A stretch of 54,892 nt of DNA. Origin: Selenomonadaceae bacterium. Lineage in GTDB: Bacteria; Bacillota; Negativicutes; Selenomonadales; Selenomonadaceae. The translations under genes and the position numbers were made by a program. Position 1 is the first letter of the stretch, and every line of letters begins with the position of its first letter. The notes under the pieces are model-generated. The model was not told where the DNA came from, did no database searches, and saw nothing but the letters and a program-made list of their open reading frames with translations. Positions 2,814 to 42,277 of the stretch are shown here, piece after piece. The stretch is taken from the NCBI GenBank assembly GCA_017529935.1, contig JAFXNB010000057.1, forward strand, positions 1 through 54,892, read 5' to 3'.

Positions 2814-3113
2814 TTGAATTCACTTCCTTTCGACGACTGCCTTTGCTTGAATCTGCGATAAATATACACCCGAAAAATCGCGGCGTCATGTCAAAAATCC
2901 TGTGAATGAACTACGGAGAAAATTTCGATGCGAAAAAATTCAAAGACAATCAACAAATTTCACCGCTCGCACGCGGGCTTGAGAAAATTTTTGCGGCTGG
3001 TCTCTTACGGTTGCTATCATTGAAATCTTTTTTCCAAGCACGCAATTACGCCGCGCAGTTATGACGACTTGCTGAGGCAGATAAGATTTTTTGTCCCAGA
3101 AAAAAATTTGCAG

Positions 3114-4139: not shown

Positions 4140-5061
4140 CGATACGAAAAACTCGCTCTTTCGATTGCTTTGCCAAATCGTCAACGAAATCTGCGCGGGC
4201 GGCAAATTCACTCGCAAAGAAATTCTCCGCCGAATTTTTGCCCTGCCCGAATTCATTTACCTTGAAGCACCCGAAAAAGTTCGTGAGGAAGAAATTGTCG
4301 ACGCGCTGTTCAATTTCGACGGCGACGGCTTTGCTGTGGTGCCGACGGAGAAAAAATTTTCCTTACCGATAAGCGATACGGAATGTTCGTGGTTGCGGGC
4401 GGTGCTTGCCGACGAGGAGACTGCGTTTCTTTTGCCCGCCGACTTCAGGAAAAAATTACTCGCGTGCTTGGCAAATTGCCCGCCGCTGTATGAAAAAAAT
4501 TTGTGGCGAAAACTCCGCTCCGAGCAAAATTCGGCGGCAAGAAAAAATTTTTTCGTCAACCTGTCAATTATAGTTGAAGCTCTGCGACGGCGGCGGAAAG
4601 TTTTTGTCGACGGGCAATCCGTGTCACCATGCCGCTTGGAATACGATTTATCGGCGGACAAGTACTTTCTGATTGCTTGGCGCGAAGAGGCGCGGACGAT
4701 AGAAAAAATGCCCGTCGAGGGCTTTGATACGGTCGAGTTGAGCGGGAAGCAAATCCCGGACGACACCGACGAGCGATTGGAAAATTTTTATTCGGCGCAC
4801 GTCGCGGAGGTTTCGTTGGAGGTGCAGAACACGCGCAACGCCGTCGAAAGATGTTTCGCGCTGTTCAGTTCGTTCGATAAGAAAGCTCGCCTGCAGGACG
4901 ACGGCACTTGCGTTTTGACGATAAGCTACAGCCTGCTTGACGAGGAGGAAATTTTGGAAAAAATTTTATCGTTGGGCGCGACCGTTACAATCACTGCGCC
5001 GGAAAGTATTCGCGAACGAATTCGCCAACGATTTATCGAAATAAATAATTTGTACGAATGA
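4123..5061 (+). CDS. WYL domain regulator, second paralog
   Basis: WYL-like core ..VSPCRLEYDLSADKYFLIAWREEARTIEKMPVEGF.. Its ATG overlaps the upstream WYL gene by 17 nt. Confidence 0.6.
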   Translation: MQSLFDDTKNSLFRLLCQIVNEICAGGKFTRKEILRRIFALPEFIYLEAPEKVREEEIVDALFNFDGDGFAVVPTEKKFSLPISDTECSWLRAVLADEETAFLLPADFRKKLLACLANCPPLYEKNLWRKLRSEQNSAARKNFFVNLSIIVEALRRRRKVFVDGQSVSPCRLEYDLSADKYFLIAWREEARTIEKMPVEGFDTVELSGKQIPDDTDERLENFYSAHVAEVSLEVQNTRNAVERCFALFSSFDKKARLQDDGTCVLTISYSLLDEEEILEKILSLGATVTITAPESIRERIRQRFIEINNLYE

Positions 5062-6786: not shown

Positions 6787-6888
6787 AAGATTTTCCTCCG
6801 TCAATCGTGATACCGGAAAATTCGCTTTGGAGCATAAATAATCCTTCCCTTTAGTCTTGCAGAGCATTCCACAATTTTTTTTCGTTCC

Positions 6889-6917
6889 ATGACAAACGGG
6901 AAATGATGTGTTATAGT
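6889..6917 (+). promoter_or_regulatory. Candidate sigma70-type promoter of the BREX-like operon
   Basis: -35 ATGACA (6889-6894), 17-nt spacer, extended -10 TGtTATAGT (-10 at 6912-6917), 35 nt before ATG 6953. Confidence 0.4.
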
Positions 6918-6952
6918 TTCCACGAACAAGAATTTTTTTTAGGTGATACGCG

Positions 6953-8338
6953 ATGCAAAATATTGTTAAAAATGTTGTTGAGATTGTAAAGGAAAATTTT
7001 CCAAACGGGATACGCGACGACTTTATCGACACCAACAAAGTTTTGCGCATTTATCGGACGAATCACGCGGACGAAAATATTTCGCGGAATTTTATTGCAG
7101 AAATTATTCGCGCAAACGGAATTGAGGACGGCGGACGTTTTTATTTTATCTCCGATGACAACGCAGAAAATATTCGGCAATTTCTCGACGAAATTTTAAG
7201 CGCAAATTCAATCGCCTACTACGCCAAAATTCACGAAAAGCACTCGGATTTTTTTGCCGCCATGCACATTTTTTCGCCCGACGTTTTGAGGAAAATTTTG
7301 CAAACTATTGGCGGGAATTTTTATTTTCCGGAATTCTGTTCGGCGCGGAGAGCGACGCGCCTTGATTATGTGGTTGCGAAAATTTTTACGGCGGCAGAAA
7401 ATTCTTTGTCACTCGACGACTTGCAAGAAAAGTTGCCCTACGTCCCGCCCGAAAAAATTTTGGCGGTGCTCTCCGACGTGAAAAAATATCTGCCGACGAG
7501 CGCGGGCAAGTTCATTCCCTTTTCCAGAATTCAATTCGACACCGACGAGATTAACGACGCTAAAAAGCAAATTTCTCGCCACATTGAAAAAGACGGCTAT
7601 GCTCTGCCCGAAGATTACAGTTTGGCTTCAAATTTCGCGCTCAATCCCGAACTCGCCGAAAAAGATTTGCGCAATATCATTTACGAAAAATTTTTCGCCG
7701 AAGACTTCACGCGCCGCGGAAAAAAACTTTCCGGAAAAGGTGACGACGGCAGAAAAAAATCTTCGGGCGTTGTTGAACGTATCAGAGAATTTATCGCCGA
7801 CAAAAATGAAGTGGCTGTCAAAGATATTTTCGCGCTAGATGAAACCTTAAACGATAAACCCAGCGTGGTATTTTACGCCGCGTATGAAACGATGATTCGC
7901 GTCGATAAAAATTTTTTCGTCAAAGATGCGCTGATAAATTTCGACGTTGTCGGTGTGGATGACGCTTTAACGTCCTTTGTGCAAGGCAAAATTATTTCCC
8001 TGCGCGGCGTCACGAGCTTTACGGGTTTTCCGCCGGTCGCGGGCTATTCGTGGAATTTGTTCCTGCTTGAAAGTTTTTTGCGCAAGTCCAGCCGAAAATA
8101 TTCTTTCCACAATCCCGCACCAAACAGCGCGAACGTCGGGGCGATTTATCTCAAGTCGCTGAAGTTTGAAGATTATCTCGACGTTCAAGCGGCGGTCGTC
8201 GTCCAAGAAAAAATTCCGCTCGAAAAATCCGCCGTCGAAGAATTTCTGGTTCGTCAAGGCTTCAGGGCAAACCGAATCGCCAAAGTCACTGAAAGGATAA
8301 TTGCGCGCGCAGGAAATTTACAATCCGTGAAGAATTAA
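6953..8338 (+). CDS. Hypothetical 461-aa protein, first gene of the BREX type 4-like operon
   Basis: AGGTGA SD 6 nt before the ATG. Its stop is 9 nt before brxP. I recognise no motif in it. Confidence 0.6.
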   Translation: MQNIVKNVVEIVKENFPNGIRDDFIDTNKVLRIYRTNHADENISRNFIAEIIRANGIEDGGRFYFISDDNAENIRQFLDEILSANSIAYYAKIHEKHSDFFAAMHIFSPDVLRKILQTIGGNFYFPEFCSARRATRLDYVVAKIFTAAENSLSLDDLQEKLPYVPPEKILAVLSDVKKYLPTSAGKFIPFSRIQFDTDEINDAKKQISRHIEKDGYALPEDYSLASNFALNPELAEKDLRNIIYEKFFAEDFTRRGKKLSGKGDDGRKKSSGVVERIREFIADKNEVAVKDIFALDETLNDKPSVVFYAAYETMIRVDKNFFVKDALINFDVVGVDDALTSFVQGKIISLRGVTSFTGFPPVAGYSWNLFLLESFLRKSSRKYSFHNPAPNSANVGAIYLKSLKFEDYLDVQAAVVVQEKIPLEKSAVEEFLVRQGFRANRIAKVTERIIARAGNLQSVKN

Positions 8339-8347
8339 GCCGCCATT

Positions 8348-10630
8348 ATGTACAGCTACGAATTTGACGAAGAAACCGGCGGGCTTTTGTTGAAGGACAC
8401 CGAAGCGCAGATGTCCAAGGAGCCACGTCCGGTTTACGCCGAAGGAATGAATATTTTGGGCTTCGACAGCCGCTGGCATTACGAAAATCAAAATGACGTG
8501 CCGTATCTTTGGGCGGAGGCCGGCAACTATTTTTATCGCGCGAAAAAAATTGCCGTCGTCAGGGGTGGCTCTCTTTATGAAAAGCCCGCGCTTGAGTTCG
8601 TCGAAGATGACGGCTTGCCGGAAGGTGAAACGCTCTTGCCCGTCGATTTAAAGAAGATGTCCGCGAAAAATTTTGAGCTGATGGAGAACTTGCGGCAGGC
8701 GACTATCAAGCGCATTTACAATTATTGGCGGCGTTATCAAAAGCGGCTGGATTGTTTTCACGTGGCGTTCAGCGGCGGCAAAGATAGCGTCGTCCTGCTC
8801 GATTTGGTCAAGCACGCGCTGCCCAAGGCGTCTTTTATTGTCGTCTTCGGCGATACGCACATGGAATTTCCCGACACCTATAAAATCGTCGACGCGGTGG
8901 AAAAACAATGCAAAGCTGAAGGTATCGGCTTTTATCGTGCCGCCTCGAAGATGTTGCCTGAGGAAACGTGGAAACTTTTCGGACCGCCGTCGACTGTCCT
9001 GCGCTGGTGTTGCTCCGTCCACAAAGCCGCGCCGCAAACTTTGAAGATCCGCGAGATTTTAAACAAGCCCGATTTCGTCGGCGCGGATTTCGTCGGCGTC
9101 CGTGCTCAAGAAAGCGTCAAGCGTGCCGATTATGACATTGAAAATTTCGGCATGAAACAGCGCGGGCAACTTTCCCACAACTCAATTTTGGAATGGAGCG
9201 CGGCGGAAATTTGGCTGTATATCTTCATGTACGGCTTGCCCATTAACGAAACCTACAAGAAAGGAAATTCCCGTGCGGGCTGTTTATTCTGTCCTCTTGC
9301 AAGTAGTAAAAATAATTTTTTCAAGATGCAGGGATACAAACAATCAATAGAGAAATATATCTCACTTACGTTTTCAGCTTTAAACCCAGATAACGTTGAT
9401 GATTCATATGTAAAGGGAGGTGCTTGGATAGTTCGCAGAAGTGGCAGAGATTTAAAAAATTCCGTTACCAATTACCGCGAAGAAATTTCGGGCGATTATC
9501 TTTACATCACCGTCACGGCTCCCAAAACCGACTGGCGCGAATGGATTAAAACTCTCGGCGAAGTTCCTTTTCCCTACGAGGTCAACGAGGCGGAAGATAA
9601 AAGCGTTACCGCGAAAGTCAAAGCCGTCTACAATAAAACGCCCGCCATGAAAATTTTTAAGTCGGTCTTTCACAAAGCGGCGGCATGTGTCGGTTGCGGT
9701 GTCTGCGAATCAAATTGCAGACACGGCGCAATTTCTTTCAAGGACGGTTTGCACATCGACGAAAAAAAATGCATCCACTGTCTGCAGTGCCATAGTATAG
9801 AAAATGGCTGTCATTTATATGATTCTACAAGAACTACAAAGGAAGGAGATGATGTTAAATTGAAAGGGTTAAATGTTTTTAATACCCATGCGCCAAAGTC
9901 TGAATGGATAAAATTTTTCTTTGATAAAAAGAATGATTTTTTCTCTTTAAATCAGATGGGAGCACCTCAAGTAAAAAGTTTTAAGCATTTCTTGATTGAT
10001 TCGGAATTGATAGACGGAAAAAATCTTAAAACGACAAAAACGTTTAATCTTACAGAAAAAATTGGCGTAAATAGTGCTGTGGCGTGGGGAATTCTTTTTA
10101 TCAATCTCACTTATAACAACAAGCAAATACGGTGGTATGTAGACAATATGCCGATTGGACAAAACTTTTCGGCTAGAGAAATTAAAGATAAATTAATATC
10201 TATGGAAATTTCTACTATAAATGCGACACATATCACTTCAGCGTTTAGGCGGCTGTGTGAAACTCCGCTCGGCACGGAATTAAATTTCGGGACGACGACA
10301 AGCGACGGAAAAAATCTTTCGACGCTGAGGCGCACCAAAGCAAAGATTGACGACGGGCGAGTTATCCTGTACGCGCTGTACAAATTCGCGGAGGCGACGG
10401 ACGGTTGGTATCAATTCAACTTGTCGCGGCTGATGAGCGATTCGGATTCGGTGGGCGTCAGTCCGTCAAAACTTTTCGGGCTGGAGCGCGAGGAAATGCA
10501 ACAGTTTTTGAACGGGCTGTCGGCAAATTATCCCGACTTCATCAGCGTGACGTTCACGCACGACCTTGAAAAAATTTCGCTCGTGGCGGAAAAGACTTCG
10601 CAGGACGTTTTGAATTTGTTTAACCGTTAG
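8348..10630 (+). CDS. brxP: BrxP-like PAPS-reductase/PP-loop ATP pyrophosphatase with 2x[4Fe-4S] ferredoxin motif and a C-terminal extra domain
   Basis: PP-loop HVAFSGGKDSVVLLD. Cys motifs RWCCSVHK and AGCLFCP. Ferredoxin motifs CVGCGVCESNC and CIHCLQCHS. A C-terminal domain of about 250 aa has unknown function. Confidence 0.75.
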   Translation: MYSYEFDEETGGLLLKDTEAQMSKEPRPVYAEGMNILGFDSRWHYENQNDVPYLWAEAGNYFYRAKKIAVVRGGSLYEKPALEFVEDDGLPEGETLLPVDLKKMSAKNFELMENLRQATIKRIYNYWRRYQKRLDCFHVAFSGGKDSVVLLDLVKHALPKASFIVVFGDTHMEFPDTYKIVDAVEKQCKAEGIGFYRAASKMLPEETWKLFGPPSTVLRWCCSVHKAAPQTLKIREILNKPDFVGADFVGVRAQESVKRADYDIENFGMKQRGQLSHNSILEWSAAEIWLYIFMYGLPINETYKKGNSRAGCLFCPLASSKNNFFKMQGYKQSIEKYISLTFSALNPDNVDDSYVKGGAWIVRRSGRDLKNSVTNYREEISGDYLYITVTAPKTDWREWIKTLGEVPFPYEVNEAEDKSVTAKVKAVYNKTPAMKIFKSVFHKAAACVGCGVCESNCRHGAISFKDGLHIDEKKCIHCLQCHSIENGCHLYDSTRTTKEGDDVKLKGLNVFNTHAPKSEWIKFFFDKKNDFFSLNQMGAPQVKSFKHFLIDSELIDGKNLKTTKTFNLTEKIGVNSAVAWGILFINLTYNNKQIRWYVDNMPIGQNFSAREIKDKLISMEISTINATHITSAFRRLCETPLGTELNFGTTTSDGKNLSTLRRTKAKIDDGRVILYALYKFAEATDGWYQFNLSRLMSDSDSVGVSPSKLFGLEREEMQQFLNGLSANYPDFISVTFTHDLEKISLVAEKTSQDVLNLFNR

Positions 10631-10633
10631 GGA

Positions 10634-13600
10634 GTGACGGCGTTGGTATATGAACCAAATAAATATCTGGAGTACTTCGTAATAGATGAGGGCTATTATC
10701 CCGAAATCAACGAAAGCTCCATTAAAGACCCGAAAAACAAGTGGCAATACACCTTCCCGCACAAAGATATTGTCGCGCTGATGAAGTTGACGGAGCGTGC
10801 GTTATCGCGTCTGGAAAAGAAAAGCATTTGGCTTGAAGGCTCCTACGGTACGGGCAAATCGCGTATCCTCTGGATGATGCAAAATCTTTTGTCGTGCCCC
10901 GAAGAAGACTTCGACGCCTATTTTAATGAGTATGACAACTTGCGCGGGGAAATCGATTTGCGCGAACGGCTCCGCACCCTACGCAACGGCAAAATCATCA
11001 CGGCTGCCCGCTACGCCACCGGCGACATCACCTCCGCGCAGAAATTAATTTTCGCGGTGTTTGAAAGTTTGACTGCCGCGCTCAAAAAGAACGGTTGCAA
11101 ATTCGACGGCGCAAAAACTCTGCGCGGGAAAATTGCCGGCTGGCTTGAATCCGACAAAGCAAATTTGGAAATGTTTCGCGCCAAAATTCAGAAGCCCGAA
11201 TACAGAATGAGCGCGACTTTGGCTAATCGGACGGCGGAAGAAATTATCGAGCGGCTGAAAAATCCCAACGCGACGGTTTCACAGCTTGTCGAAGATATTT
11301 TGAAACTCGGCGAGCGCGAAGGTATCCTGGCGTTCAATATCAACATGCGAGAGTTGACTGAATGGATTGCCGAAGTTATCGCCGAAAATGATTTGAAGGC
11401 GATTGTTTTATTTTGGGACGAATTCTCCAAGTTCTTTGGCAACAACCGCAACAATCTCGACGAATTTCAGCGGCTGGCGGAGCTGTCGAATATCGCGCCG
11501 TTTTACCTGTTCATCGCAACGCATAAATCGGACAGCCTTGCCGGAGAGGGCGACCAAGCCTTCCGCATTGTCAGCGACAGATTCAACCATATGAACATCA
11601 CCATGCCCGATAACATCGCGCTTGAACTTGTCGGGCACGCGCTGAAAGTCAAGGACGTTGCCCGAAATGAATGGGAATATATTTCCGCCGCGCTGAGGGA
11701 ACGCACCGCCGAACCGCGCAAAGTCGTCATGGATTACGTCAAAATTCGCGACGAGAAAGTTTTGACAGATATTTTGCCGATTCACCCGATAACCGTAATT
11801 TTGTTGAAAAATCTTGCGTCGTACTTCGCCTCCAATCAACGGAGTATTTTTAATTTTATAAAGAACAGCGACCCGAATATTAAAGCATTCCAAGATTTTA
11901 TCGCGACGAAAAGTCCCGAAGACGGCGACCTTTTGACGATAGATTATCTGTGGAACTTTTTTTATGAGAGCGGCACGGACGAACACGGCGGCAACGTCGG
12001 ACGCATGAATTTAAAGCCGTCAATCCGCGCAATTCTCGACTCCTACGCGCTCAACAAAGATAATCTGAACCTCGACGAGCAAGCCGTTTTGAAGACAATT
12101 TTGCTGTTCCAAGCGATTGATCAAGAATCCGGCGGCAGCGTTGCTATTTTCCGCCCGACGGAAAAAAATTTGGAGCTGGCGTTCACCGGCGTCGCTGACA
12201 TGGAAAACGGACGCGCCGTCACTATCGCCAATGATTTGTTGCGCAAGGAAATTTTATTCAAGAAGCCGAGCAAGCCGGGCGAGGCGGATACTTTCGCGGC
12301 AATGGCATTGGGCGGCGATTTCGCGGAAATTGAACGGCTGAAAAAATCTATCGCCGATAACGTGAGGACTGCTGAACTTGTCGAAAGTGCCAGATTGCTT
12401 GAAACGATAACTCTGACGGCGGCGCAAAAATGCCGCTACGTTTTGCACGCCGTGACCGCCGATAATTTCACGTTGACGATAAACCGAATCACCAACGAAA
12501 AGGAAAATTATCAAATTAAAGCGGTCGTCTGCTTTGCCCGCAACGAGGACGAGCAAAATAAAATTTACAATCTCCTAAACGGCGCGCTCCGCAACGAACG
12601 CTATCACGGGCTGGTTTTTATTGACGCCACGTCGAATTTGATAAGCCGCGAAGTTTTTACGCGCTGGGTTGAAAACGCCGCCAACGAAAAATATTGGCGC
12701 AACAAAGAACCTTCCCTCGCCGACAAAATGAAAAACAACGCCGCCGATTGTCTCAAGGAATGGTACAATTCCTTTGCGGGCGGCTCTTTTGTTTACTACG
12801 CCGCGACGAAAAATGCTAGCGACGAACGCAGAGGAATTTCCTGCCAAAGCGCGGACAAAATCACCGACGAACTTAAGGACAACGTGCGCCGCCTTTATCC
12901 CTATTCCTTCGACAACGCAAATATCACCGACACGCTTTTTTTGTCTACTAATTTGAAACGGCTTTCCGAGGCGGGAATAAAGCAGGAAGAATTTTCCATG
13001 CTCAAGGCGAATTCGATTAAAGTTGTCCTGCGCGACGCGTGGCAGATGTCAGAAAAATATTGGGAAGTTTATCCGCAGGCAAATATTTCGCGCTTGAAAA
13101 TTGAACTCGACGCGCTGATTAAAAGTGCGATTGAAAGTAACTCAAGTATATCCTTTGACGATATTTTTAGCTGGCTGATTGAACGCGGCTTCATGCCGGT
13201 GAATATTTACGCGTTCCTCACGGGCTTTTTGCTGAAAGAATACGCCGGCGACCCGTACCGATTCAGCGCGGGGCTTGACGGCAATTTTGGCGGCGCGATG
13301 AGCGTTGCGAAGTTGGCGGAGTGTATCGGCGATAGCATTAAACAAACACAGACTCCCACAAGAAATTATCGCCCGAAATATTTGGAGATCATGTCGCCAA
13401 ATCAGCGGCAGTTCATGTTATTTGCGACGGAAATTTTTGGCGTGGCGGAAGATGTCTCCGTTGAGCAGAGCGCGCAGAAACTCCGCTTGAAATTCAAAAA
13501 TTTAGGTTATCCGCTGTGGTGCTACGTCGAGGCGGCGGACGACTATTATAAAAATTTTTTAGGTTGGCTGGCGGATATTGCCAATTCAAAACAAGCGGTC

Positions 13601-14845
13601 AGTGTTTCGGCGTTGGCGGAGCGTGCCGGACAATTTTTATTGAACAATCCCGCCGCCTTTCACGACTTGAAACTTTTCTTGACGGCGCAAAAAGGTCGCG
13701 AAATTTTTACCGGCTTCGTGAAAGATTTTGAAGACGGAATAATTTTTGACTTGGCGCAGAAAATCGGAATAGAAAATCCCGTTGCGGAATGTCAACGGCG
13801 AGTGACTTCAGGCGACGGCATTTGGCTACACGATAAAGAGACCGCGATAGACGATTTGCAAAAATTGATTGTCGATTGGGAGATTGTCGCTGAAAGTCAC
13901 AAATTCGGCATTGACGGGAAATCGCTCAATGCTTGCGTAAAAAATTGGGCGGATTATTGCCGATTCAATTTGAAAATTCCCGCCGACGTAATGGGCGATT
14001 ATTATCCGGCGATAAAAGATTTCTTCGCGCTTTTGAAAGAATTATCCGAACGCGGAGAAATTCCGCAAAGCAAAAGGGATTTTTTTTTATGCCGACTTAT
14101 CGACGCCGCCGAAATTATTCGCGACGCACTTTCCGAGCCGATAAAAATTTTGCGCGAAAAATATTCTTATCAGCTCAGCGGCTTGAATGACGAGGAAATT
14201 AAAGACTTGCATAGTTGTTTGCCGAACAGTTCATTCACCGATTCGCACGGTCGCTATCATAAAACAGTTGATGATTTCGCGAAGAAGATAAAAAGCAAGC
14301 AGCTGAAAAATACGCTCGTGGATTTGTGGGGTAAAGTTGCCAGCAATAATTCTCCGCGTGAATGGTCGAAAATTCATCGCACGCCGATTTTGGCAATGGT
14401 GCCGCACTCGGAGCAGGATGCCGCCCGAAAAATTTTTAATATCGTGATGACGAATGCGCCGGAAGAAAAAGATGTTCAATTCGCGATTGATTATCTGGAA
14501 AAGCAGCCGCCGTATTTCGCCGCGCTCAATGATAAACGGCAAATTGAAGCGGCTTTCCGCAAGGCGATTATCGACGAAGATTATCGCGTTTTGCTGGACG
14601 ACAACGACGAAGTTCGCGACGAGCTGGAGTTGAAATTTCCCGGCGACGCTTATCAATGGTATTCAAATGTTCGCGTGAAAGAAATCGTTAAAAAATTTGC
14701 CGAGAATAAATATTACAGCGGCGGGGCTTATGACAAATTAATTGCGCGAGTTATGCGCATGTCTAATGAAGACGCAAAAAAACTTTTGGTTGCATTGTTG
14801 AATAAAAATTTTGAGGTCGGCTTGAAACTTTTGAGGGAGCCTTGA
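10634..14845 (+). CDS. brxC: BrxC/PglY-like large P-loop ATPase
   Basis: 1403 aa. Walker A is GSYGTGKSR and Walker B-like is IVLFWDEFSKF. It sits between brxP and pglZ. The start could be GTG 10634 or TTG 10643. Confidence 0.75.
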   Translation: MTALVYEPNKYLEYFVIDEGYYPEINESSIKDPKNKWQYTFPHKDIVALMKLTERALSRLEKKSIWLEGSYGTGKSRILWMMQNLLSCPEEDFDAYFNEYDNLRGEIDLRERLRTLRNGKIITAARYATGDITSAQKLIFAVFESLTAALKKNGCKFDGAKTLRGKIAGWLESDKANLEMFRAKIQKPEYRMSATLANRTAEEIIERLKNPNATVSQLVEDILKLGEREGILAFNINMRELTEWIAEVIAENDLKAIVLFWDEFSKFFGNNRNNLDEFQRLAELSNIAPFYLFIATHKSDSLAGEGDQAFRIVSDRFNHMNITMPDNIALELVGHALKVKDVARNEWEYISAALRERTAEPRKVVMDYVKIRDEKVLTDILPIHPITVILLKNLASYFASNQRSIFNFIKNSDPNIKAFQDFIATKSPEDGDLLTIDYLWNFFYESGTDEHGGNVGRMNLKPSIRAILDSYALNKDNLNLDEQAVLKTILLFQAIDQESGGSVAIFRPTEKNLELAFTGVADMENGRAVTIANDLLRKEILFKKPSKPGEADTFAAMALGGDFAEIERLKKSIADNVRTAELVESARLLETITLTAAQKCRYVLHAVTADNFTLTINRITNEKENYQIKAVVCFARNEDEQNKIYNLLNGALRNERYHGLVFIDATSNLISREVFTRWVENAANEKYWRNKEPSLADKMKNNAADCLKEWYNSFAGGSFVYYAATKNASDERRGISCQSADKITDELKDNVRRLYPYSFDNANITDTLFLSTNLKRLSEAGIKQEEFSMLKANSIKVVLRDAWQMSEKYWEVYPQANISRLKIELDALIKSAIESNSSISFDDIFSWLIERGFMPVNIYAFLTGFLLKEYAGDPYRFSAGLDGNFGGAMSVAKLAECIGDSIKQTQTPTRNYRPKYLEIMSPNQRQFMLFATEIFGVAEDVSVEQSAQKLRLKFKNLGYPLWCYVEAADDYYKNFLGWLADIANSKQAVSVSALAERAGQFLLNNPAAFHDLKLFLTAQKGREIFTGFVKDFEDGIIFDLAQKIGIENPVAECQRRVTSGDGIWLHDKETAIDDLQKLIVDWEIVAESHKFGIDGKSLNACVKNWADYCRFNLKIPADVMGDYYPAIKDFFALLKELSERGEIPQSKRDFFLCRLIDAAEIIRDALSEPIKILREKYSYQLSGLNDEEIKDLHSCLPNSSFTDSHGRYHKTVDDFAKKIKSKQLKNTLVDLWGKVASNNSPREWSKIHRTPILAMVPHSEQDAARKIFNIVMTNAPEEKDVQFAIDYLEKQPPYFAALNDKRQIEAAFRKAIIDEDYRVLLDDNDEVRDELELKFPGDAYQWYSNVRVKEIVKKFAENKYYSGGAYDKLIARVMRMSNEDAKKLLVALLNKNFEVGLKLLREP

Positions 14846-14847
14846 GC

Positions 14848-16713
14848 ATGGAAATTTTGAGTATCGAGGACGCCGTAAAAAAGATTCGCATTTATTTAAG
14901 TCGAGACACATTACTCCCATACTTTTTCATTTCGGACGGCGCGACGGAGTTCAAAAAAACTTTTGGCGACTTCGAGCAAATTCATATTTCGGACTTTTGC
15001 GCGGGAGATTTTTTTGTTGATACGGATTGGCTTATCGACAAGCTGAACGCGCTGACCCGTGACGCGCTAGTTTTTGGCTTAGGCGAATACATTTACTTCA
15101 CCGCGCAGGAAAATATTTTGCGGACGTTGCAGGACAAAAATTTTAATCGGAAAGTTATCTTCGTCTGTCGAGGCATTGCCAATTTGCTGGAGCGTCTCGC
15201 CGACGAAGATTTTAAATTTCGCACGAATCAGATTTGCCGCGTCGGAGGCAAAGTAAATTTTTCCGTCGTGAAATACAATCCCGCGCTAAATTTCCCGACC
15301 GACGCCCAAAATTTTTCCGAACTGTTGAAGCTTTTAGAGGGCGGCAAAACTTCGGCGACTGTGCAAACAAATTTGCCGCTCGTGAACGTCAAGGAGATAA
15401 ATAATTTTTACGACGCGATAAAAAATCGGGAGCCGCAATTCAACATTTCGCCAGACGCGCTGAACGATTCGCAGTGGCAAGAATATTTCTTCGACGAAAA
15501 CTGCGACGGCTATCCGCCCGAACATTGGCGAACTTTCGCGGCGGGTTTCAAGAATAAAATTTCCAATCCGTATTTGCGCTACGTTTTTGCCGATTCCGCG
15601 AATTTCGAGGCGTATCGTAAAAATTTATTTTTCGCGTTGCTTGACGTTGACGGAAAAGTTTTCGAGGAATTTTATTCGTTGCGGAAAGTTGCCGTCAAAA
15701 ATATTTCGTCGCCGTATCTTGCAGAATATCTTGAGCGGCTGAAAACTTTCCTCGACGCCGTGAAATATCTGACGGACAACACCGCCGAAGAGCGTCGCGC
15801 GATGATTGAGACCGTGCAGGGCAAGGAAAAAATCCCCGACGCCTTCAAGAAAAATTATCCGGCGATGAATGATTATTTGGCGGACTTCGATTTTGGCGAC
15901 GCGGAGGTTACGAATTATTTTCGGCGGTACAAGAAAATTAAGCTGTGCAACGTCGACGATGAAACTTTTAAAAATCGCGTTCGGGAGCTGGCGACGCAAA
16001 GACCCTACAATAAATTCGAGACGCGACAGAAAATTTTAGACGACGCGGATAAAAATGCAAAACTCTATTGGTTAGACGCGCTCGGCGTGGAGTTTTTAGG
16101 ATATATTAAAGCGCGGGCGATTCAACTTGAACTTTCTGCGGCGATTAAAATTGCGCGTGCCGAATTGCCGACGCTGACTTCCCAAAATAAAATTTTCTAC
16201 GACGATTGGCGCGGCGATAAATTCGATAAAAATTCCGCGCTTGACGAATTGAAACATTCGCCCGAAAAATTTGGCGCGCCGATTTACATTGACGACGAGC
16301 TTAAAATTATCGACGACGTGCTTGCGGAAATAAAAAATTCTCTGGCGAATCACGACGCCGAAAAAATTATTCTGACTTCAGACCACGGAGCGAGCCGTCT
16401 TGCCGTCACGTTCGGGCGCGAAAATAAATTCAAGATGAATTCCGGCGGCGAACACGGCGGACGATGTTGCCCGATAAACGCGCTTGACGAAAAGCCGACT
16501 TGCGCAACGGAGGAAAATGGCTGGTGGGTTTTGGCGAATTACGACAGATTTGCGGGCGGGCGATTGGCTTCAGTGGAAGTTCACGGCGGCGCGACTTTGG
16601 AAGAAATTTTGATTCCCGTGATTGAATTCAGCTTGCAAGGCGCGGACGATGAAGTTAAAATTTCCGAGCCGCAAGAAAAATCTGATGAGGCTTTTGATTT
16701 TCTTTTGGATTGA
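14848..16713 (+). CDS. pglZ: PglZ alkaline-phosphatase-fold protein
   Basis: Motifs ..ILTSDHGASRL.., ..GEHGG.., ..VHGGATLEEILIPVIEF. ATG 14848 has GAGGGAG 8 nt upstream. The ORF track starts at TTG 14842, overlapping the brxC stop. Confidence 0.75.
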   Translation: MEILSIEDAVKKIRIYLSRDTLLPYFFISDGATEFKKTFGDFEQIHISDFCAGDFFVDTDWLIDKLNALTRDALVFGLGEYIYFTAQENILRTLQDKNFNRKVIFVCRGIANLLERLADEDFKFRTNQICRVGGKVNFSVVKYNPALNFPTDAQNFSELLKLLEGGKTSATVQTNLPLVNVKEINNFYDAIKNREPQFNISPDALNDSQWQEYFFDENCDGYPPEHWRTFAAGFKNKISNPYLRYVFADSANFEAYRKNLFFALLDVDGKVFEEFYSLRKVAVKNISSPYLAEYLERLKTFLDAVKYLTDNTAEERRAMIETVQGKEKIPDAFKKNYPAMNDYLADFDFGDAEVTNYFRRYKKIKLCNVDDETFKNRVRELATQRPYNKFETRQKILDDADKNAKLYWLDALGVEFLGYIKARAIQLELSAAIKIARAELPTLTSQNKIFYDDWRGDKFDKNSALDELKHSPEKFGAPIYIDDELKIIDDVLAEIKNSLANHDAEKIILTSDHGASRLAVTFGRENKFKMNSGGEHGGRCCPINALDEKPTCATEENGWWVLANYDRFAGGRLASVEVHGGATLEEILIPVIEFSLQGADDEVKISEPQEKSDEAFDFLLD

Positions 16714-16725
16714 CGGGTGCTGATT

Positions 16726-18165
16726 ATGGAAGAACGATTAAGAAAAATTTTCTCCGACATGGTCGTCTACAAGGACTTGAAGAACAGCAATTTTTTTTCC
16801 GCGCTGAGTTTGCCGTCGTTCATGCGCGATTGGCTTTTGCGACGATTCGAGGACGCGGACGGGTAATTTGACGCGGATGAACTTTCCGATTTCGTGCGGC
16901 GATTCATTCCGAAGAAAGACGATTGGAAGGCGATTAAAAGCCGCATTGTCATGGATAACGAGCATGTTAAGTTGCTGGCGAAAATTTCCGTTGAGATTGA
17001 CATTGCAACTGGCGCGGCGTCATTTTCCTTGCCGGATTTCGGACTTTCAGCGAAAGAAACGATGATTGACGAAAATATTTGGTACCTCTACAAAGATGAA
17101 CTGATTGGCGGGCGCGAGGTTTGGGGCATGATTCAGCTGGGCTATCGTCCGCCCGATTATGATGCGCGACCGAAAATCCCCGGCAAAATTCGGTTGCTGA
17201 AGTTTAAAAATTTTTGCCCGTATAAAATTGATTTGGACTTTTACAAAGACGCGCGGAAAAATTTTTCGTTCGATGAGTGGTTGCAAATTTTGTTGGGCGC
17301 GATAGACTACAACGCGGCGGGCTACGAGCGTGAGGAAGAAAAATTGACAATGCTGACGCGGCTGTTGCCGTTCGTGGAGAAGCGATTAAATCTGATTGAA
17401 CTTGCGCCGAAGGGAACGGGCAAATCTTACGTCTTCGGGCAAATCAGTCGGTTCGGTTGGTTGTCGAGCGGCGGAATCATGAGCCGAGCCAAAATGTTTT
17501 ACGACATGCAGAAACGCCAGGAAGGTTTAGTTGCTTACAATGATTTCGTGACGCTGGACGAAGTGCAGACGATTTCTTTCAAGGACACGGACGAGATGCG
17601 CGCCGCTTTGAAGGGTTTTTTGGAGAACGGAGTTTACACGGTGGGCAACCACTCCAACAACGCCGACGCGGGAGTTGTCTTGAGCGGCAACATTGCAAAG
17701 GCGACAATGGACATGGACGGCGCGGCGAATATGTTCGACGAACTGCCGACGGTTTTTCACGAATCCGCGCTGATTGAACGCTTTCACGGCTTCATTAAGG
17801 GTTGGAATATTCCGCGCATGAACGACGACATGAAAATTTGCGGCTGGGCTTTGAACTCCGAATATTTTTGCTCAATCCTCCACGAACTGCGCGAAGATGT
17901 CAGTTATCGGGCGATTGTCGACAAGCTAGTTAAGGTGCCCGATAAAGCCGACACGCGAGACACCGCCGCGATTAAACGGATTGCCACGGCGTACTTGAAA
18001 TTATTTTTCCCTAACGTCCGCCGCGCCGAAGAAGTCGACAAAAAACTTTTCAACCGCTACTGTCTGGAGCGTGCCTGCCAAATGCGCTCGACGATTAGAA
18101 AACAGCTTGCCCTGCTTGACGTTGAATATGCCGGCAAAAATATTCCGAGTTTCGAGGTAATTTAA
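16726..18165 (+). pseudogene. brxL: BrxL-like (Lon-related AAA) gene interrupted by an in-frame TAA at codon 47 (16864-16866)
   Basis: ATG 16726 encodes MEERLRKIFSDMVVYKDLKNSNFFSALSLPSFMRDWLLRRFEDADG, then TAA, then the same frame continues FDADELSDFVRRFIPKK.. to 18165. Walker A is APKGTGKSY and Walker B is FVTLDEVQ. Confidence 0.7.
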
Positions 18166-18372
18166 TTGGCTAAGAAAAATTTCGACTGCATTGCTTGCGG
18201 CAAACACGCGCTGACCAAAAATGAAATCGGCATAAACAAAAAACTCTTGGGCGCGAAGTCCAAGAATTTTTATTGCATTGAATGCCTAGCAAATTTTTTG
18301 GAAGTGGAGCCGCAAGATATTTTAGACAAGATTGAGGATTTTAAAAATGACGGCTGCAAACTCTTTGAATAA
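18166..18372 (+). CDS. 68-aa Zn-ribbon protein (CxxC..CxxC)
   Basis: The TTG start immediately follows the brxL stop, with GAGGT 7 nt upstream. Motifs are CIACG and CIEC. Its 3' end overlaps the desulfurase start by 26 nt. Confidence 0.55.
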   Translation: MAKKNFDCIACGKHALTKNEIGINKKLLGAKSKNFYCIECLANFLEVEPQDILDKIEDFKNDGCKLFE

Positions 18373-19483
18373 AATCATTTACGCCGACAACGCCGCGACG
18401 ACCAAACTTGACGACGACGCGCTGGCTTTGATGATTGACCTGCAGAAAAACTTTTTTGCGAATCCTTCGTCGGCTTATAAGCTCTCTCGTCCGCTGAAAA
18501 AAATTTTGCGTGATTCGCGGGAAAAAATCGCCGCTTGTATCAATGCTGAGCCGCAAGAAATTATTTTCACGTCGGGCGGCATGGAAAGCGATAATTGGGC
18601 GATAAAATCTTCCGTGCTCGCGAACTTGAACGAACGCCCGAATATTATCACTTCCGCCATTGAACACAAAGCAATTTTGAATTCGTGTGCGGCGATGAAA
18701 AATTTGGGCTGTAGCGTGACGAAATTGCCCGTCGATAAATTTGGCACGGTCAATCCCGCTGACTTGCAGAAAAAAATTTTGCCGCAGACGAAAATTATTT
18801 CCGTCATGCTCGCCAACAACGAAGTTGGCACGATTCAGCCGATTAAAAATTTGGCGGAAATTGCACACGCGGCAGGGAAAATTTTTCATACGGACGCGGT
18901 GCAAGCCGTCGGACACATTCCCGTTGACGTGAAATTTTTGGGCGTGGATATGCTCTCCGCCTCCGCGCACAAGTTCAACGGTCCAAAGGGAATTGGATTT
19001 TTATGCATTCGCGACGGGCTAAAAATTTTGCCTTACATTGACGGCGGCGCACAAGAATTTTCTCGGCGGGCGGGAACGGAAAATATTCCTGCGATTGCGG
19101 CGATGGCTCTTGCACTTGAAAAAAATTGCCGCGACATGGAAATTAACGCCGAAAAACTTTCCGCCTGTACAAAAATTCTGCTCGACCAACTGCGGAGCAC
19201 TGACGTTGATTTTATTTTGAACGGCGGCGAAAATCGGTTGCCGGGGCATTTAAGTTTGTCGTTTAAAGATTGTGACGGCGAAGCTTTAATGCACCGGCTC
19301 GATTTGAAAAATATTTGCGTGTCTACTGGCTCGGCTTGCAACTCTCAACAAACAAAAATTTCTCACGTCTTAAAAGCTCTAAAAATTTCCGAAGATTACA
19401 TTCGCGGAACAATTAGAATAACTTTTGGCAAAGAAAATTCCTGCGACGACGCAAAAATTATTGGCAAGAATTTAAATTGTTAG
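18347..19483 (+). CDS. PLP-dependent cysteine desulfurase (NifS/IscS/DndA class)
   Basis: ..YADNAATTKLD.. and the PLP-lysine motif SASAHKFNGPKGIGFL, with ..STGSACNS.. (active-site Cys region). Confidence 0.8.
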   Translation: MTAANSLNKIIYADNAATTKLDDDALALMIDLQKNFFANPSSAYKLSRPLKKILRDSREKIAACINAEPQEIIFTSGGMESDNWAIKSSVLANLNERPNIITSAIEHKAILNSCAAMKNLGCSVTKLPVDKFGTVNPADLQKKILPQTKIISVMLANNEVGTIQPIKNLAEIAHAAGKIFHTDAVQAVGHIPVDVKFLGVDMLSASAHKFNGPKGIGFLCIRDGLKILPYIDGGAQEFSRRAGTENIPAIAAMALALEKNCRDMEINAEKLSACTKILLDQLRSTDVDFILNGGENRLPGHLSLSFKDCDGEALMHRLDLKNICVSTGSACNSQQTKISHVLKALKISEDYIRGTIRITFGKENSCDDAKIIGKNLNC

Positions 19484-19486
19484 CTC

Positions 19487-22468
19487 TCAAAAGGTTGCTG
19501 ACGGAAATATTTTGGTGCAGGTTGAATTTACTCGCATTTCACGATATATGATGTCGCTAAGAGCGCACATAATGGCATTATATTTTGCTTGGTCTTCAAA
19601 CAGGTTGGCATAGCTGCTTTGCGATTCCATATAGCTATTTTGCGCCGTCGTATGAAATATTTTTGGGAAAATGCTTTCTTTAAAAATCAAAGGATCGCTG
19701 GTTTTCGCCATGTTCTGCAATTTGGTATCGTTCATGAGCGTTGTCATCAGTGTTCCGACTAGCACCCTATCAGCATTTGTAAATTTACCTTTGTACTGCT
19801 CGTTTATCTTCTTGATAACTTCATCAAGCGGTTGTTTTTCTTCAGATTTAGCTGAACTTTTAGCAGTGGCAGGAGTATAGGAGCCAGATTCCTCTTTAAG
19901 CGTAATTGCGCCTTCAAAAGTTTTTTGTAGCTTGTAATATTCCAGTTGCAGTTTACCTTCAAGGTCAATCATCTGCATTTTGTCGGGCGGAATAAGCTTT
20001 ATCAAGTAGCTCAGGAAAATATATTCCTTGTGCAAATCTTCATCAAACATGCGCACGACTTGAGCAATGTAGCCGTACCATTTAATCATGTTGCGGCACA
20101 AGCGGCGGAAGTTGTAACGCTCGTCGGGATTTAACTTGTTATAACGGTCGGCAACGGGTTTTAAAATACTTGTCATGCGTCCCATATTACTTTTGCCGAA
20201 ATATTCCTTGGCAAAGAAATTAATATCTTCATCGGAGTAAACGCAATGGCCGCGTAAATTTTTTTGCACTTGATAAAGTAAATCGGTGTTGATTTCACAG
20301 TCCAGCATAGTTTCTTGATAGAACGGCTGAAATGCTTCCAAAATATCTTCTTGCGAGTTTATGAAGTCCAAAACAAAAGTATCGAGTTTGCCTTGATAAG
20401 TACGATTCAGCCGCGAAAGAGTTTGTACGGCTTTCACGCCGCGCAACTTTTTATCAACAATCATTGTGTGCAACAGCGGTTCATCAAAGCCCGTCTGATA
20501 TTTCTCCGCGACAATGAGTATATCAAAGTTCTCGTGGAACTCGGCTTTAGTCTGTGATTCGCCGATATGGCTACCGTCTTTGCGGACGTTTAATTTTGGT
20601 TCGGTGTATTCCGCGCCGCCGTCGGGCACGGAGCCGGAGAAGGCAACAAGTACCCCAATATCATAGCCCTTTTCCGCAATATAACGCTTGCACTCGTGGA
20701 AATATTTTATCGCCGCAAGCCGCGAAGAAGTAACAACCATCATTTTGCCATGTCCGCCAATTTTATGCCGCGTCGTCTCCAAAAAAGTTTCAACGATAAT
20801 TTTTGTTTTCTGGCTGATGTTGTACGGGTGCAACTCTTCAAACTTGCGGATAACTTTTGCGGCGCGATGGCTCGGCAACTCTGGATTATCCTTAACCGTC
20901 TTTGCAATCTTAAAGCAAGTGTCGTAGGCCATGTAATTTTGCAGAACGTCCAAAATAAATCCTTCCTCGATTGCCTGCCGCATTGAATAAATGTGGAACG
21001 GGTGAAAGCTTCCGTCCGCGTGCTCCGTGCCGAAAATTTCAAGTGTCGTCGGCTTGGGCGTCGCGGTAAAGGCAAAGAACGAAAGATTTTTGTGCTTGCC
21101 GTGAGCAATCATCTCTTTAACAAGTTTATCGGTCGGGTCAATCTCCGCGTCGCCTTCAAGCTCGGCATATTCCCGCAAAGCGTCTTCAGTGTCAGCCAAC
21201 GCCGTCTTTAACTTCAAAGCTGATGAGCCCGTTTGGGATGAGTGCGCCTCATCTACGATGACGGCAAAATTTTTTCCTTTAACGCTGTCCACTTCTTGAT
21301 ATATGACGGGAAATTTTTGCAAGGTCGTAACGATGATTCGAGCACCAGAGTTGATAGCGTCGCGAAGGTTGCGGCTATTTTTATTTTCTCCGATTGTCTC
21401 TACTGCTCCCAATGTATGGTCAAAGCCGCTAATCGTCTCTTGTAATTGCGTGTCGAGAACTGTCCTATCAGTTACGACGATGACGCTTGCAAAAATTGCG
21501 TTATTGTTTTTGTCGTGCAGAGAGGCCAGCCGATAAGCCGTCCAAGCTATCGAATTCGACTTGCCCGAGCCCGCCGAATGTTGAATCAAATAATTTTGCC
21601 CCGCGCCGTATTTGGTGACGTGTGCTATTATTTTCCTTACCACGTCCAATTGATGATAACGCGGAAAGATTAGCTTATTTTTTTCGACGTGAATGAACTT
21701 TTGCAGAATATCAATCATGCTGTCCTTTTGAAAGACTTGCTCCCAAAGATAAGCCGTCGGGTAGCCGCTATCGTTCGGAGGATTGCCTTTGCCGCCGTCA
21801 TGCCCCGCGCCGTTGCTCCCTTGATTGAACGGCAGAAAATATGTCTCCTTGCCCGCAAGCTTCGTCGTCATCCAAACTTCCAAATGGTCGACGGCAAAAT
21901 ATCCCAGAATCCGCTTGTTGAATTGAAAACAAATTTCTCGCGGGTCGCGGTCGTATGTCCATTGCCTTTTAGCGTCGTCGACGTTTTGCCCCGTGTATTG
22001 ATTCTTCAGCTCGAACGCAAAAATCGGAATGCCGTTGAGCACGAGCACCATGTCAACGCTTTTATTGTTGTCGGAGCTGTAATGCCATTGACGATAACAG
22101 GCAACATGATTCTTGGCGTAGAGGGCGACCGCCGTTTGATTTAATGATGATTCGGGCTTGAAGTAGCAGACACGAAATTTTATTCCGCGATGTTTGAAGC
22201 CGTGTCGCAAAACATAAACCAACCCGCTCATATCGCAAGCATTATTGAACGCCGCGCAGAATTTCCGCACAGTGTCCGATTTGTTGACGTTCTCAAAGCG
22301 CGTCCACTCTCGCGGCTGAGTCTTCCGAATAAAATTTATCAGCGTGTCGACGTAAAGTCCTGCCCGCGCGTCGTAGGTGTCGTCGCCTTTGACGTAACCG
22401 CCGGTCGCCGACAAAAAAGCCGCTTCGATGTCCTCTTCAAAGCGGCGTTCGTTCAAATCGCCGTTCAT
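19487..22468 (-). CDS. hsdR: Type I restriction enzyme R subunit
   Basis: 993 aa. Nuclease D..ELK ([18 protein letters not shown]), helicase motif [11 protein letters not shown] and motif [12 protein letters not shown]. Confidence 0.9.
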
Positions 22469-23628: not shown

Positions 23629-23631
23629 TTG

Positions 23632-28309: not shown

Positions 28310-28314
28310 CCGAT

Positions 28315-38787: not shown

Positions 38788-38826
38788 AAAAACTCTCAGG
38801 CATTGTGCTTGAGAGTTCTTTTTTTA
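38788..38826. terminator. Bidirectional intrinsic terminator between convergent genes
   Basis: AACTCTCAGG(38791-38800)/CTTGAGAGTT(38808-38817), 9 of 10 paired, A-run before and T-run after. Confidence 0.6.
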
Positions 38827-42216: not shown

Positions 42217-42277
42217 CAGACCACCTCCAAACGTTTTTTCCATTATAAATCATGCGTCAAGAGCAAAATTATTGTTT

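Follow-up and report, generated by a model that had tools for sequence, protein, structure and literature searches.

A type 4 BREX cassette of a rumen Selenomonadaceae bacterium that probably marks self DNA by phosphorothioation

Positions 6953-19483 of the window, by which we mean the whole 54,892-nt stretch of Selenomonadaceae DNA that was analyzed, most likely hold a seven-gene type 4 BREX that uses DNA phosphorothioation (PT) as its self mark, as judged from sequence homology. The region consists of seven co-directional, tightly packed reading frames, and all seven genes are real, though the frame of brxL is interrupted. In gene order, profile searches identify an unannotated 461-aa protein (here p461), BrxP, BrxC, a BREX-4 PglZ, a short Lon-less BrxL, a 68-aa zinc-ribbon protein and a NifS/DndA-like cysteine desulfurase. 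Because type 4 phosphorothioation and the desulfurase/zinc-finger pair were published between 2024 and 2026, this locus is another example rather than a new system, namely a further, well-preserved one from a rumen Selenomonadaceae. The features of the region are as follows:

6889..6917, + strand: promoter-like site, with ATGACA, a 17-nt spacer, TATAGT and a TG extension (10/12 consensus matches; a consensus match only)
6953..8338, + strand: p461, the first gene, 461 aa, of an unannotated family; a predicted tandem winged-helix array
8348..10630, + strand: brxP; PADLOC BrxP PDLC02510 at 1.9e-237, residues 1-758 against profile positions 1-775 of 779
10634..14845, + strand: brxC, a 1403-aa P-loop ATPase (BrxC/PglY; SspC homologue); PADLOC BrxC PDLC02485 at 9.1e-235 over its full length
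14842..16713, + strand: pglZ of the BREX-4 type, with a TTG start at 14842, or a start at 14848 as called publicly
16726..18165, + strand: brxL, a short MCM-like AAA+ form without Lon; PADLOC BrxL PDLC02505 at 1e-194 downstream of the stop and at 1.7e-15 over the 46 aa that precede it
16864-16866, + strand: in-frame TAA at brxL codon 47, the T at 16864 being A (AAA, Lys) in two public assemblies of this organism and in close relatives
18166..18372, + strand: zinc-ribbon protein, 68 aa, with two successive CxxC motifs, a body of three helices and, at the C-terminus, a conserved GCxLF with Cys64
18347..19483, + strand: class I (NifS/IscS/DndA-like) PLP cysteine desulfurase, with a 26-nt overlap with the zinc-ribbon gene; Pfam Aminotran_5 at 1.1e-74

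The intergenic spacings are 9, 3, -4 (or 2), 12, 0 and -26 nt in gene order. An earlier reading of this DNA from the sequence only had listed the same seven co-directional frames with these spacings, and the open reading frame coordinates bear it out except for the frame of brxL. Upstream, the promoter-like site lies within a 166-nt divergent intergenic region, and the gene downstream of the desulfurase is a convergent hsdR. The operon had also been described as lacking a DNA methyltransferase, and this is indeed the case: none of the seven proteins has a Pfam methyltransferase domain or the motif [NDS]PP[YFW], and the nearest N6_Mtase belongs to a separate, convergent type I hsdM (23632-25392).

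The assignment to type 4 BREX is carried by PADLOC and NCBIfam matches, which corroborate the earlier naming of BrxP, BrxC, PglZ and BrxL. BrxP comprises a PP-loop/PAPS-reductase-like domain (aa 139-317), a cysteine-rich 4Fe-4S-type region (aa 447-488) and a C-terminal DUF4007/SspB-like domain (aa ~516-758). In Pfam, it matches PAPS_reduct (2e-28) as well as Fer4, and in PADLOC, its residues 130-316 match SspD (1e-13) and DndC (1.4e-8), in agreement with the proposal that BrxP is SspD-like. The final ~250 aa had been taken for an extra domain that might resemble SspB. The resemblance is supported by a match to DUF4007 (PF13182, the SspB family) when the C-terminal 260 aa are scanned alone (E 2.2e-6, 27.5 bits against a cut-off of 27), but the domain is no addition, as it falls within the canonical BrxP profile; the SspB module is thus present as a domain fused to BrxP and not as a separate gene. 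Of two CxxCxxCxxxC motifs attributed to BrxP, the first is present (CVGCGVCESNC at residue 447), whereas the second is in fact Cx2Cx2Cx6C.

BrxC, for which the public annotation places the start at 10643, also matches five SspC models in PADLOC (1.9e-21 to 2e-6), far below its scores against the BrxC models. With these matches, the ATPase and PAPS-reductase genes both fall inside the BrxC/BrxP/Ssp families. PglZ scores 338.6 bits against NCBIfam NF033445, 'BREX-4 system phosphatase PglZ' (cut-off of 140), and 2.9e-83 against PADLOC PglZ, with Pfam DUF7863 and DUF7864 in its N-terminal part. The catalytic motifs are intact throughout: the PP-loop of BrxP (SGGKDS at residue 142) and its cysteine clusters, the Walker A motif of BrxC (GSYGTGKS at residue 69), and the PLP lysine (SAHK 206) and active-site cysteine (GSAC 328) of the desulfurase.

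Type 4 BREX had been described as mechanistically uncharacterized, which is out of date: Yuan et al. (bioRxiv 2024, preprint of June; Nat Commun 2026; PMC12914056) showed experimentally that it makes phosphorothioate DNA. In their study, BrxP fuses SspD to SspB (DUF4007), BrxC is homologous to SspC, PT is synthesized by BrxP and BrxC together with a desulfurase, and PT dinucleotides depend on brxC, with brxZ and brxL dispensable for modification. The proposal that a sulfur mark takes the place of PglX methylation is supported here by the combination of BREX-4, SspD/DndC, SspC and DUF4007 matches with a linked desulfurase. One might instead suppose that BrxP, BrxC and the desulfurase install some other sulfur modification, such as a thiolated base, rather than a backbone phosphorothioate, since tRNA thiolases are also found among the PP-loop enzymes with Fe-S clusters and the NCBIfam DndC model (TIGR03183) is matched below threshold (24.4 bits against a cut-off of 290.4). 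However, PT dinucleotides have been measured in several brxPCZL strains and are lost on deletion of brxC (PMC12914056), and homology to DUF4007/SspB and SspC links the system to the Ssp machinery for PT, such that we consider a different modification extremely improbable.

For backbone phosphorothioation, we propose the following division of labor. The operon-encoded PLP desulfurase would withdraw sulfur from cysteine and carry it as a persulfide. This sulfur would then be placed on a non-bridging phosphate oxygen, within short motifs of the host DNA, by BrxP acting with the SspC-like BrxC; BrxP would serve here as a DndC/SspD-type PP-loop ATP pyrophosphatase that also has a cysteine-rich Fe-S-type region and, fused to it, a DNA-binding domain similar to DUF4007/SspB. 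We infer this placement by homology, and it has been shown experimentally for a Bacteroides type 4 BREX. The arm that blocks unmarked incoming DNA is probably made up of PglZ and the Lon-less, MCM-like BrxL, to judge from the analogous type 1 BREX.

The desulfurase matches the DndA and SspA models of PADLOC almost equally (1.7e-122 and 4e-122, respectively), while its best curated match is NifS (TIGR03402), and housekeeping desulfurases can substitute in Dnd, Ssp and BREX-4 systems (PMC12914056). These points, along with the 8 of 55 informative loci that have no linked copy, would fit a housekeeping NifS/IscS that merely adjoins the BREX genes and has no dedicated part in the system. Against this, the protein falls below the NCBIfam equivalog cut-offs for NifS (414 vs. 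530.75 bits), IscS (281 vs. 548 and 263 vs. 643) and DndA (cut-off of 480), its gene overlaps the preceding one by 26 nt, and no NifU/IscU scaffold gene adjoins it, its neighbors being the zinc-ribbon gene and the convergent hsdR. Furthermore, a desulfurase occupies the same operon position in 47/55 informative loci across many phyla, which shows a recurrent linkage to brxP-brxC-pglZ-brxL, and the genes flanking the window's operon recur in none of the 80 surveyed loci. Chromosomal synteny is therefore not what keeps the desulfurase in place, as it would for a housekeeping gene, and a housekeeping identity is very unlikely. Its absence from 8/55 loci nevertheless indicates that it is not obligatory in cis.

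A second question is what the desulfurase supplies. It may mainly build or maintain the Fe-S cluster(s) of BrxP rather than donate sulfur directly to DNA, or it may do both, as the two 4Fe-4S-type cysteine clusters of BrxP would allow; You et al., listed among the references of PMC12914056, also count in its favor. We regard this as possible but somewhat unlikely, as the desulfurases of Dnd and Ssp are treated as the sulfur donor for PT in the text of a comparative survey that reviews them (PMC12839542). Both roles could coexist, and the sequence gives no means of telling one from the other.

To place the operon among its relatives, we draw on a survey of 80 loci, in which the counts for single genes refer to informative loci; one Pfam scan covered 51 sequences. 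The loci come from Bacillota, Bacteroidota, Spirochaetota, Planctomycetota, Chloroflexota, Desulfobacterota, Lentisphaerota, Kiritimatiellota, Synergistota, Nitrospirota and Verrucomicrobiota, and one is archaeal (a Methanoregula). All seven genes occur in the same order and orientation in 44 of the 56 loci long enough to show them, a conservation far beyond chance. In one locus (L012), there is an apparent inversion spanning pglZ and brxL. A recombinase-type switch was considered for it and rejected, as the junctions carry no convincing inverted repeats, and for the same reason the inversion may be a misassembly.

Not all core genes of type 4 BREX have an intact frame in the window copy, the exception being brxL. 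Its product matches TIGR02688 (384 bits, cut-off of 329) and spans the short BrxL profiles (about 450-480 positions) end to end. Earlier called a BrxL-like Lon/AAA protein, it retains the BrxL and AAA parts of that description but loses the Lon part, as its only Pfam domains are BrxL_N and BrxL_ATPase. The gene had also been taken for an open frame, which it is not, and it is because codon 47 reads TAA that the program-made list of open reading frames gives only 16894-18165 for brxL.

This nonsense codon raises the prospect that the system of this genome is decaying or is a modification-only remnant in which the restriction arm has been lost and the writing of PT persists. Such an outcome has parallels among the Selenomonadaceae relatives, in which restriction genes are repeatedly missing while brxP, brxC and the zinc-ribbon gene are kept: both pglZ and brxL are deleted in one locus (L009), brxL is deleted in three (L015, L033 and L047), and pglZ is truncated in another (L056). 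It would also be compatible with the dispensability of brxZ and brxL for PT synthesis (PMC12914056). Yet in L056, brxP and p461 are disrupted as well, which points to general decay rather than selective loss. Moreover, codon 47 reads AAA in two public assemblies of this organism, with a called BrxL of 482 aa, and AAA, AAT or AAC in six relatives. Over 20.2 kb, the window and the public contig differ at five single bases, the T at 16864 among them, and we found no independent record of a truncated 423-aa BrxL product, so that the nonsense allele is attested by the window alone. In light of the AAA in the public assemblies and the lack of a truncated product on record, the T could represent either an error in the sequence or a rare variant, and we judge it unlikely that the system is a remnant. 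If the T is real, the window copy would still modify DNA but would be impaired for exclusion.

Beyond the core genes, the cassette includes two proteins of proposed accessory function. The first, p461, yields no sequence match in Pfam, PADLOC, NCBIfam or PDB, and a profile of its family finds nothing below E 0.67 among all PDB chains. Its AlphaFold2 model (pLDDT 88) most closely matches tandem winged-helix proteins in Foldseek, including UFL1 (2.4e-6) and the C-terminus of SelB, and p461 is accordingly predicted to be a tandem winged-helix array. The family comprises 1361 cluster representatives and has no Pfam entry. A module of ~450 aa is conserved, with a C-terminal core that includes F359, P360, W367, N368 and LLES, and in most lineages, this module is preceded by N-terminal heads that vary and that come from domains for binding DNA or reading modified DNA (HARE-HTH, RNA polymerase alpha CTD, sigma region 4, the McrB N-terminal domain, DUF4357 and ankyrin repeats). 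A PADLOC scan of the long N-terminal extensions of four p461 homologues gave only one weak match, to PglW/MzaA, and a tblastn search of 72,556 plasmids with p461 gave none. The idea that p461 is a diverged copy of the DUF4007/BrxA-like domain of BrxP was rejected (profile-profile probability of 0.5%, E 0.13).

In 69/71 informative loci, the gene directly upstream of brxP is a p461 homologue, and p461 is thus a conserved part of the type 4 BREX cassette. This conserved linkage and the predicted winged-helix fold had been missed by the sequence-only reading. We found no description of p461 in PMC12914056, and the text and supplement indexes of PMC12839542 make no mention of a conserved gene upstream of brxP, though the gene-neighborhood figures of that paper may draw it. 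From its fold and gene linkage, we propose that p461 may serve as a DNA-binding subunit for targeting or sensing. Tentatively, it could determine where phosphorothioate is written, or it could read marked versus unmarked DNA.

The second, the zinc-ribbon protein, is encoded directly 3' of brxL in every informative locus (55/55) and is likewise a conserved part of the cassette. Its AlphaFold2 model (pLDDT 79) has no significant Foldseek match, the best being weak hits to sigma-region-4-like HTH folds (E 0.56). These are compatible with a published remark that the zinc-finger protein of type 4 loci is 'HTH-like' but prove nothing. From its fold and gene linkage, we propose that it may be a partner in sulfur transfer or a regulator.

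When compared with published type 4 BREX systems, the locus agrees with the comparative survey (PMC12839542, NAR 2026), as far as its text and supplement indexes go, in having BrxP with a PAPS-reductase domain, an Fe-S region and DUF4007, together with BrxC, PglZ and a Lon-less BrxL. It also has the linked cysteine desulfurase and small zinc-finger protein that recur in type 4 loci according to that text, and the one point on which it goes beyond that text and those indexes is p461 upstream of brxP. The brxPCZL operon of Bacteroides salyersiae (PMC12914056) shares the SspD-SspB-fused BrxP, the SspC-like BrxC and the synthesis of PT by these two proteins and a desulfurase. However, in that operon mcrA separates brxP from brxC, a further unnamed gene is present, and the desulfurase is supplied in trans (SufS), whereas here there is no McrA, and the desulfurase and zinc-ribbon genes lie inside the operon.

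Similar relationships extend to the other systems with related chemistry. SspABCD has counterparts here to each of its parts, in the form of the SspA-like desulfurase, DUF4007 (SspB), the SspC-like ATPase and the SspD-like PP-loop enzyme, but SspB and SspD are fused and the ATPase scores far better as BrxC. In place of the restriction partners SspE or SspFGH, for which PADLOC finds no match among the seven proteins, there are PglZ and BrxL. The locus shares with DndABCDE-DndFGH a NifS-like desulfurase and a PAPS-reductase-like Fe-S enzyme, whereas the match to DndC is weak by both PADLOC and NCBIfam, and neither database identifies homologues of DndB, DndD, DndE or DndFGH in the operon. Finally, type 1 BREX (brxA-brxB-brxC-pglX-pglZ-brxL) likewise has BrxC and PglZ, its BrxL shares the N-terminal and AAA+ domains of the one here, and by analogy its defense logic of a self mark and exclusion of unmarked DNA would be the same. 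Here, in contrast, the PglX methyltransferase is absent, BrxL ends without a Lon-like C-terminal domain, and methylation would give way to sulfur chemistry.

Being compact and bringing along a sulfur donor of its own, the locus is a good candidate for heterologous reconstitution, and p461 and the zinc-ribbon protein offer conserved entry points to how type 4 BREX systems choose their motifs and sense unmarked DNA.

The seven co-directional reading frames described by the sequence-only reading were all found in the window, and the same intergenic spacings were obtained on checking the frames:

6953-8338, forward strand: reading frame of p461, the 461-aa product of the first gene
8348-10630, forward strand: reading frame of brxP
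10634-14845, forward strand: reading frame of brxC
14842-16713, forward strand: reading frame of pglZ
16726-18165, forward strand: reading frame of brxL, interrupted at codon 47
18166-18372, forward strand: reading frame of the zinc-ribbon gene (68-aa product)
18347-19483, forward strand: reading frame of the desulfurase gene

With the exception of the interrupted brxL, the original observation is real. The proposed absence of a methyltransferase holds at the level of both motif and domain, as neither [NDS]PP[YFW] nor a methyltransferase domain was found in any of the seven proteins. BrxP carries SGGKDS at residue 142 and, at residue 447, one of two claimed Cx2Cx2Cx3C clusters; the other, at residue 475, is instead Cx2Cx2Cx6C. 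BrxC has a Walker A motif (GSYGTGKS) at residue 69, while the desulfurase has its PLP lysine in SAHK (residue 206) and its catalytic cysteine in GSAC (residue 328).

Profile searches place five of the products in known families. BrxP matches the PADLOC BrxP profile (1.9e-237) over all 779 positions, and therefore its C-terminal domain, previously read as an addition, is canonical BrxP. The suggested SspB likeness of this domain is borne out: when scanned alone, the C-terminal 260 aa match Pfam DUF4007, the SspB family (E 2.2e-6, 27.5 bits, cut-off 27). The view of BrxP as SspD-like likewise agrees with PADLOC matches to SspD (1e-13) and DndC (1.4e-8). BrxC matches its own PADLOC model (9.1e-235) as well as five SspC models (best 1.9e-21), and PglZ matches both PADLOC PglZ (2.9e-83) and the NCBIfam "BREX-4 system phosphatase PglZ" model (338.6 bits, cut-off 140). 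BrxL, which had been described as a BrxL-like Lon/AAA protein, is indeed BrxL, with matches to the 482-position short model of PADLOC (1e-194) and to the NCBIfam short model TIGR02688 (384 bits, cut-off 329); since its only Pfam domains are BrxL_N and BrxL_ATPase, it lacks a Lon protease domain. The desulfurase is a class I enzyme with a DndA/SspA-like match in PADLOC (~1e-122). In NCBIfam, its scores do not reach the curated cut-offs set for the NifS, DndA and IscS equivalogs, and it is thus a member of none of the housekeeping equivalogs. For p461 and the zinc-ribbon protein, no match was found in Pfam, PADLOC or NCBIfam.

These assignments support the interpretation of the operon as a sulfur-marking type 4 BREX, a system that is already known. 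The description of type 4 as uncharacterised is out of date, as work on its phosphorothioate (PT) modification has been published by Yuan et al. (PMC12914056; bioRxiv June 2024, Nat Commun January 2026). In that study, PT dinucleotides are present in strains carrying brxPCZL and are abolished by deletion of brxC, the modification is independent of brxZ and brxL, and an unnamed gene, Bs02795, is dispensable for PT synthesis. BrxP is described there as "effectively a SspD-SspB fusion protein" and BrxC as an SspC homologue. A comparative survey (PMC12839542; NAR January 2026) resolves BrxP into an alpha+beta domain, a 4Fe-4S-type cysteine region and DUF4007, and reports a cysteine desulfurase in 255 of 457 type 4 taxa (56%), terming it "potentially the sixth core component". 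Every element of the sulfur-marking proposal is correct and is already contained in these two papers. By homology to systems in which these steps have been shown, the desulfurase persulfide would supply sulfur, and BrxP with BrxC would write phosphorothioate at short motifs. PglZ and BrxL might act to keep out unmarked DNA, with the winged-helix protein p461 and the zinc-ribbon protein possibly assisting in targeting, sensing or sulfur relay.

From an alignment of 13 BrxP homologues as the seed, 80 loci were fetched from one-genome-per-species contigs, and their genes were counted by tblastn with the window's proteins. The loci span Bacillota, Bacteroidota, Spirochaetota, Planctomycetota, Chloroflexota, Desulfobacterota, Lentisphaerota, Kiritimatiellota, Mycoplasmatota, Synergistota, Nitrospirota, Armatimonadota, Verrucomicrobiota and Abditibacteriota, as well as a Methanoregula. 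Of the 56 loci long enough to hold the whole operon, 44 carry all seven genes in a single orientation. In 55 loci, the sequence continues for 1.5 kb or more past brxL; the zinc-ribbon gene comes after brxL in every one of these (55/55), and the desulfurase gene in 47. This recurrent linkage (85%) is higher than the published 56%, probably because our loci are the closest BrxP relatives. By tblastn, the upstream neighbour genes of the window occur in none of the 80 loci. The constant gene set and differing upstream neighbours indicate that the cassette moves as a unit. The refuting condition named in the sequence-only reading is thereby answered, as the desulfurase is not a housekeeping gene conserved at this position. 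Where the desulfurase is absent, the operon usually ends with the zinc-ribbon gene. In one such locus (L060, 20428-22050), an OLD-family nuclease (AAA_15 ATPase and TOPRIM) directly follows the zinc-ribbon gene.

That the zinc-ribbon gene is linked in all informative loci, above the desulfurase, suggests that its product is not merely a desulfurase accessory. A cross-phylum alignment shows a conserved CxxC, a second CxxC and a C-terminal GCxLF, the last of which holds a fifth conserved cysteine besides the four zinc ligands; the protein is possibly a persulfide acceptor. Its model is a zinc knuckle wrapped around three helices (pLDDT 79), for which a Foldseek search gave no significant match.

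The sequence-only reading passed over a stop in brxL: in the window, codon 47 is TAA (16864-16866), with T instead of A turning Lys47 into a stop, and for this reason an ORF lister reports brxL only as 16894-18165. In six relatives, this codon is AAA, AAT or AAC. It is AAA in the public contig (ENA ERZ28018745 k141_1489246, 66,566 bp) and in a second assembly of the same organism (ERZ28653946), both with a called 482-aa BrxL. Only five single-base differences (at 521, 3021, 3986, 7960 and 16864) separate the window and the public contig across 20.2 kb. Window positions 1-429 do not align to that contig, and the remainder matches at 99.98%. No record of a truncated BrxL product was found in databases, and the T at 16864 may be either a real variant or a sequence error.

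Restriction genes are also lost among Selenomonadaceae relatives. Locus L009 is missing pglZ and nearly all of brxL; L015, L033 and L047 are missing brxL, with L033 also lacking the desulfurase; and in L056, pglZ is truncated and brxP and p461 are disrupted. brxC and the zinc-ribbon gene are retained throughout these five loci, four of which (all but L056) also have an intact brxP. Such recurrent loss could mean that the restriction arm is costly or that the system is used for modification only. In a further locus (L012, 15410-16483), we observe an apparent inversion that takes in the end of pglZ together with codons 1-285 of brxL; convincing flanking inverted repeats were not found, and the metagenome-assembled genome may be misassembled here.

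The operon is located in a defence island. Genes noted around it in the window are:

901-2598 (forward), 3069-4139 (forward), 4123-5061 (forward), 5092-6786 (reverse): two CARF-HEPN (Csx1/Csm6-like) genes flanking two WYL genes, one with WCX
19487-25392, reverse strand: complete type I restriction-modification system (hsdR 993 aa, hsdS 387 aa, hsdM 586 aa), convergent with the operon
28267-29775: AMP-binding enzyme
32053-34177, forward strand: PRTase_2/TRSP protein, then StiP cysteine-protease/PELOTA_1 protein
38824-42243, reverse strand: type IIG-like fused restriction-modification gene, single chain of 1139 aa (HSDR_N_2, N6_Mtase/Eco57I, Methylase_S)

The CARF-HEPN/WYL cluster, a type III CRISPR accessory or signalling cluster, lies immediately upstream of the BREX operon in divergent orientation; for the ORF of 652 aa reported at 5092-7050, a start at 6786 is most likely. 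Further upstream, beyond the point where the alignment with window bases 1-429 fails, the public contig carries cas2, cas1 and MJ1673/MJ1674-like genes. On the other side, the hsdR stop codon is 3 nt from that of the desulfurase. The type IIG-like gene is a further defence gene of the same island, and the PRTase_2/TRSP-StiP pair is a tellurite-resistance-like stress or conflict module.

A p461 homologue stands directly upstream of brxP in 69 of the 71 loci with room for it, usually at a distance of 1-17 nt. Outside Selenomonadaceae, p461 corresponds to the C-terminal ~450 aa of larger proteins (540-1400 aa). When 1.84 billion cluster representatives were searched with a profile, 1361 family members were recovered, including 851 below 1e-30; nearly all of the 150 members listed have the module at the C-terminus, preceded by an N-terminal extension of 0 to ~970 aa. 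Among 51 longer members scanned, most extensions have no Pfam match, and the heads recognised are HARE-HTH (6), RNA polymerase alpha C-terminal domain (5) and sigma-70 region 4 (5), and more rarely ankyrin repeats (2), the McrB N-terminal DNA-binding domain (1) and DUF4357 (1). The AlphaFold2 model of p461 is confident (pLDDT 88) with loosely packed domains (pTM 0.51), and is built from repeated helix-helix-helix-hairpin units. No relative was found by sequence in the PDB, and the best Foldseek matches are tandem winged-helix proteins: UFL1 (2.4e-6), the SelB C-terminus, Rpc5, ESCRT-II and ScpB. A kinship with the DUF4007 domain of BrxP was also considered, and no relationship was detectable. 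In the searchable text and supplement indexes of PMC12914056 and PMC12839542, which do not extend to the neighbourhood figures, p461 was not found; Bs02795 of Yuan et al. could be its homologue. We infer that p461 may be a conserved adaptor that binds DNA and carries exchangeable sensor heads; it would then be a candidate target selector or reader of the modification state. This unannotated winged-helix family is the one lead from the locus worth keeping.
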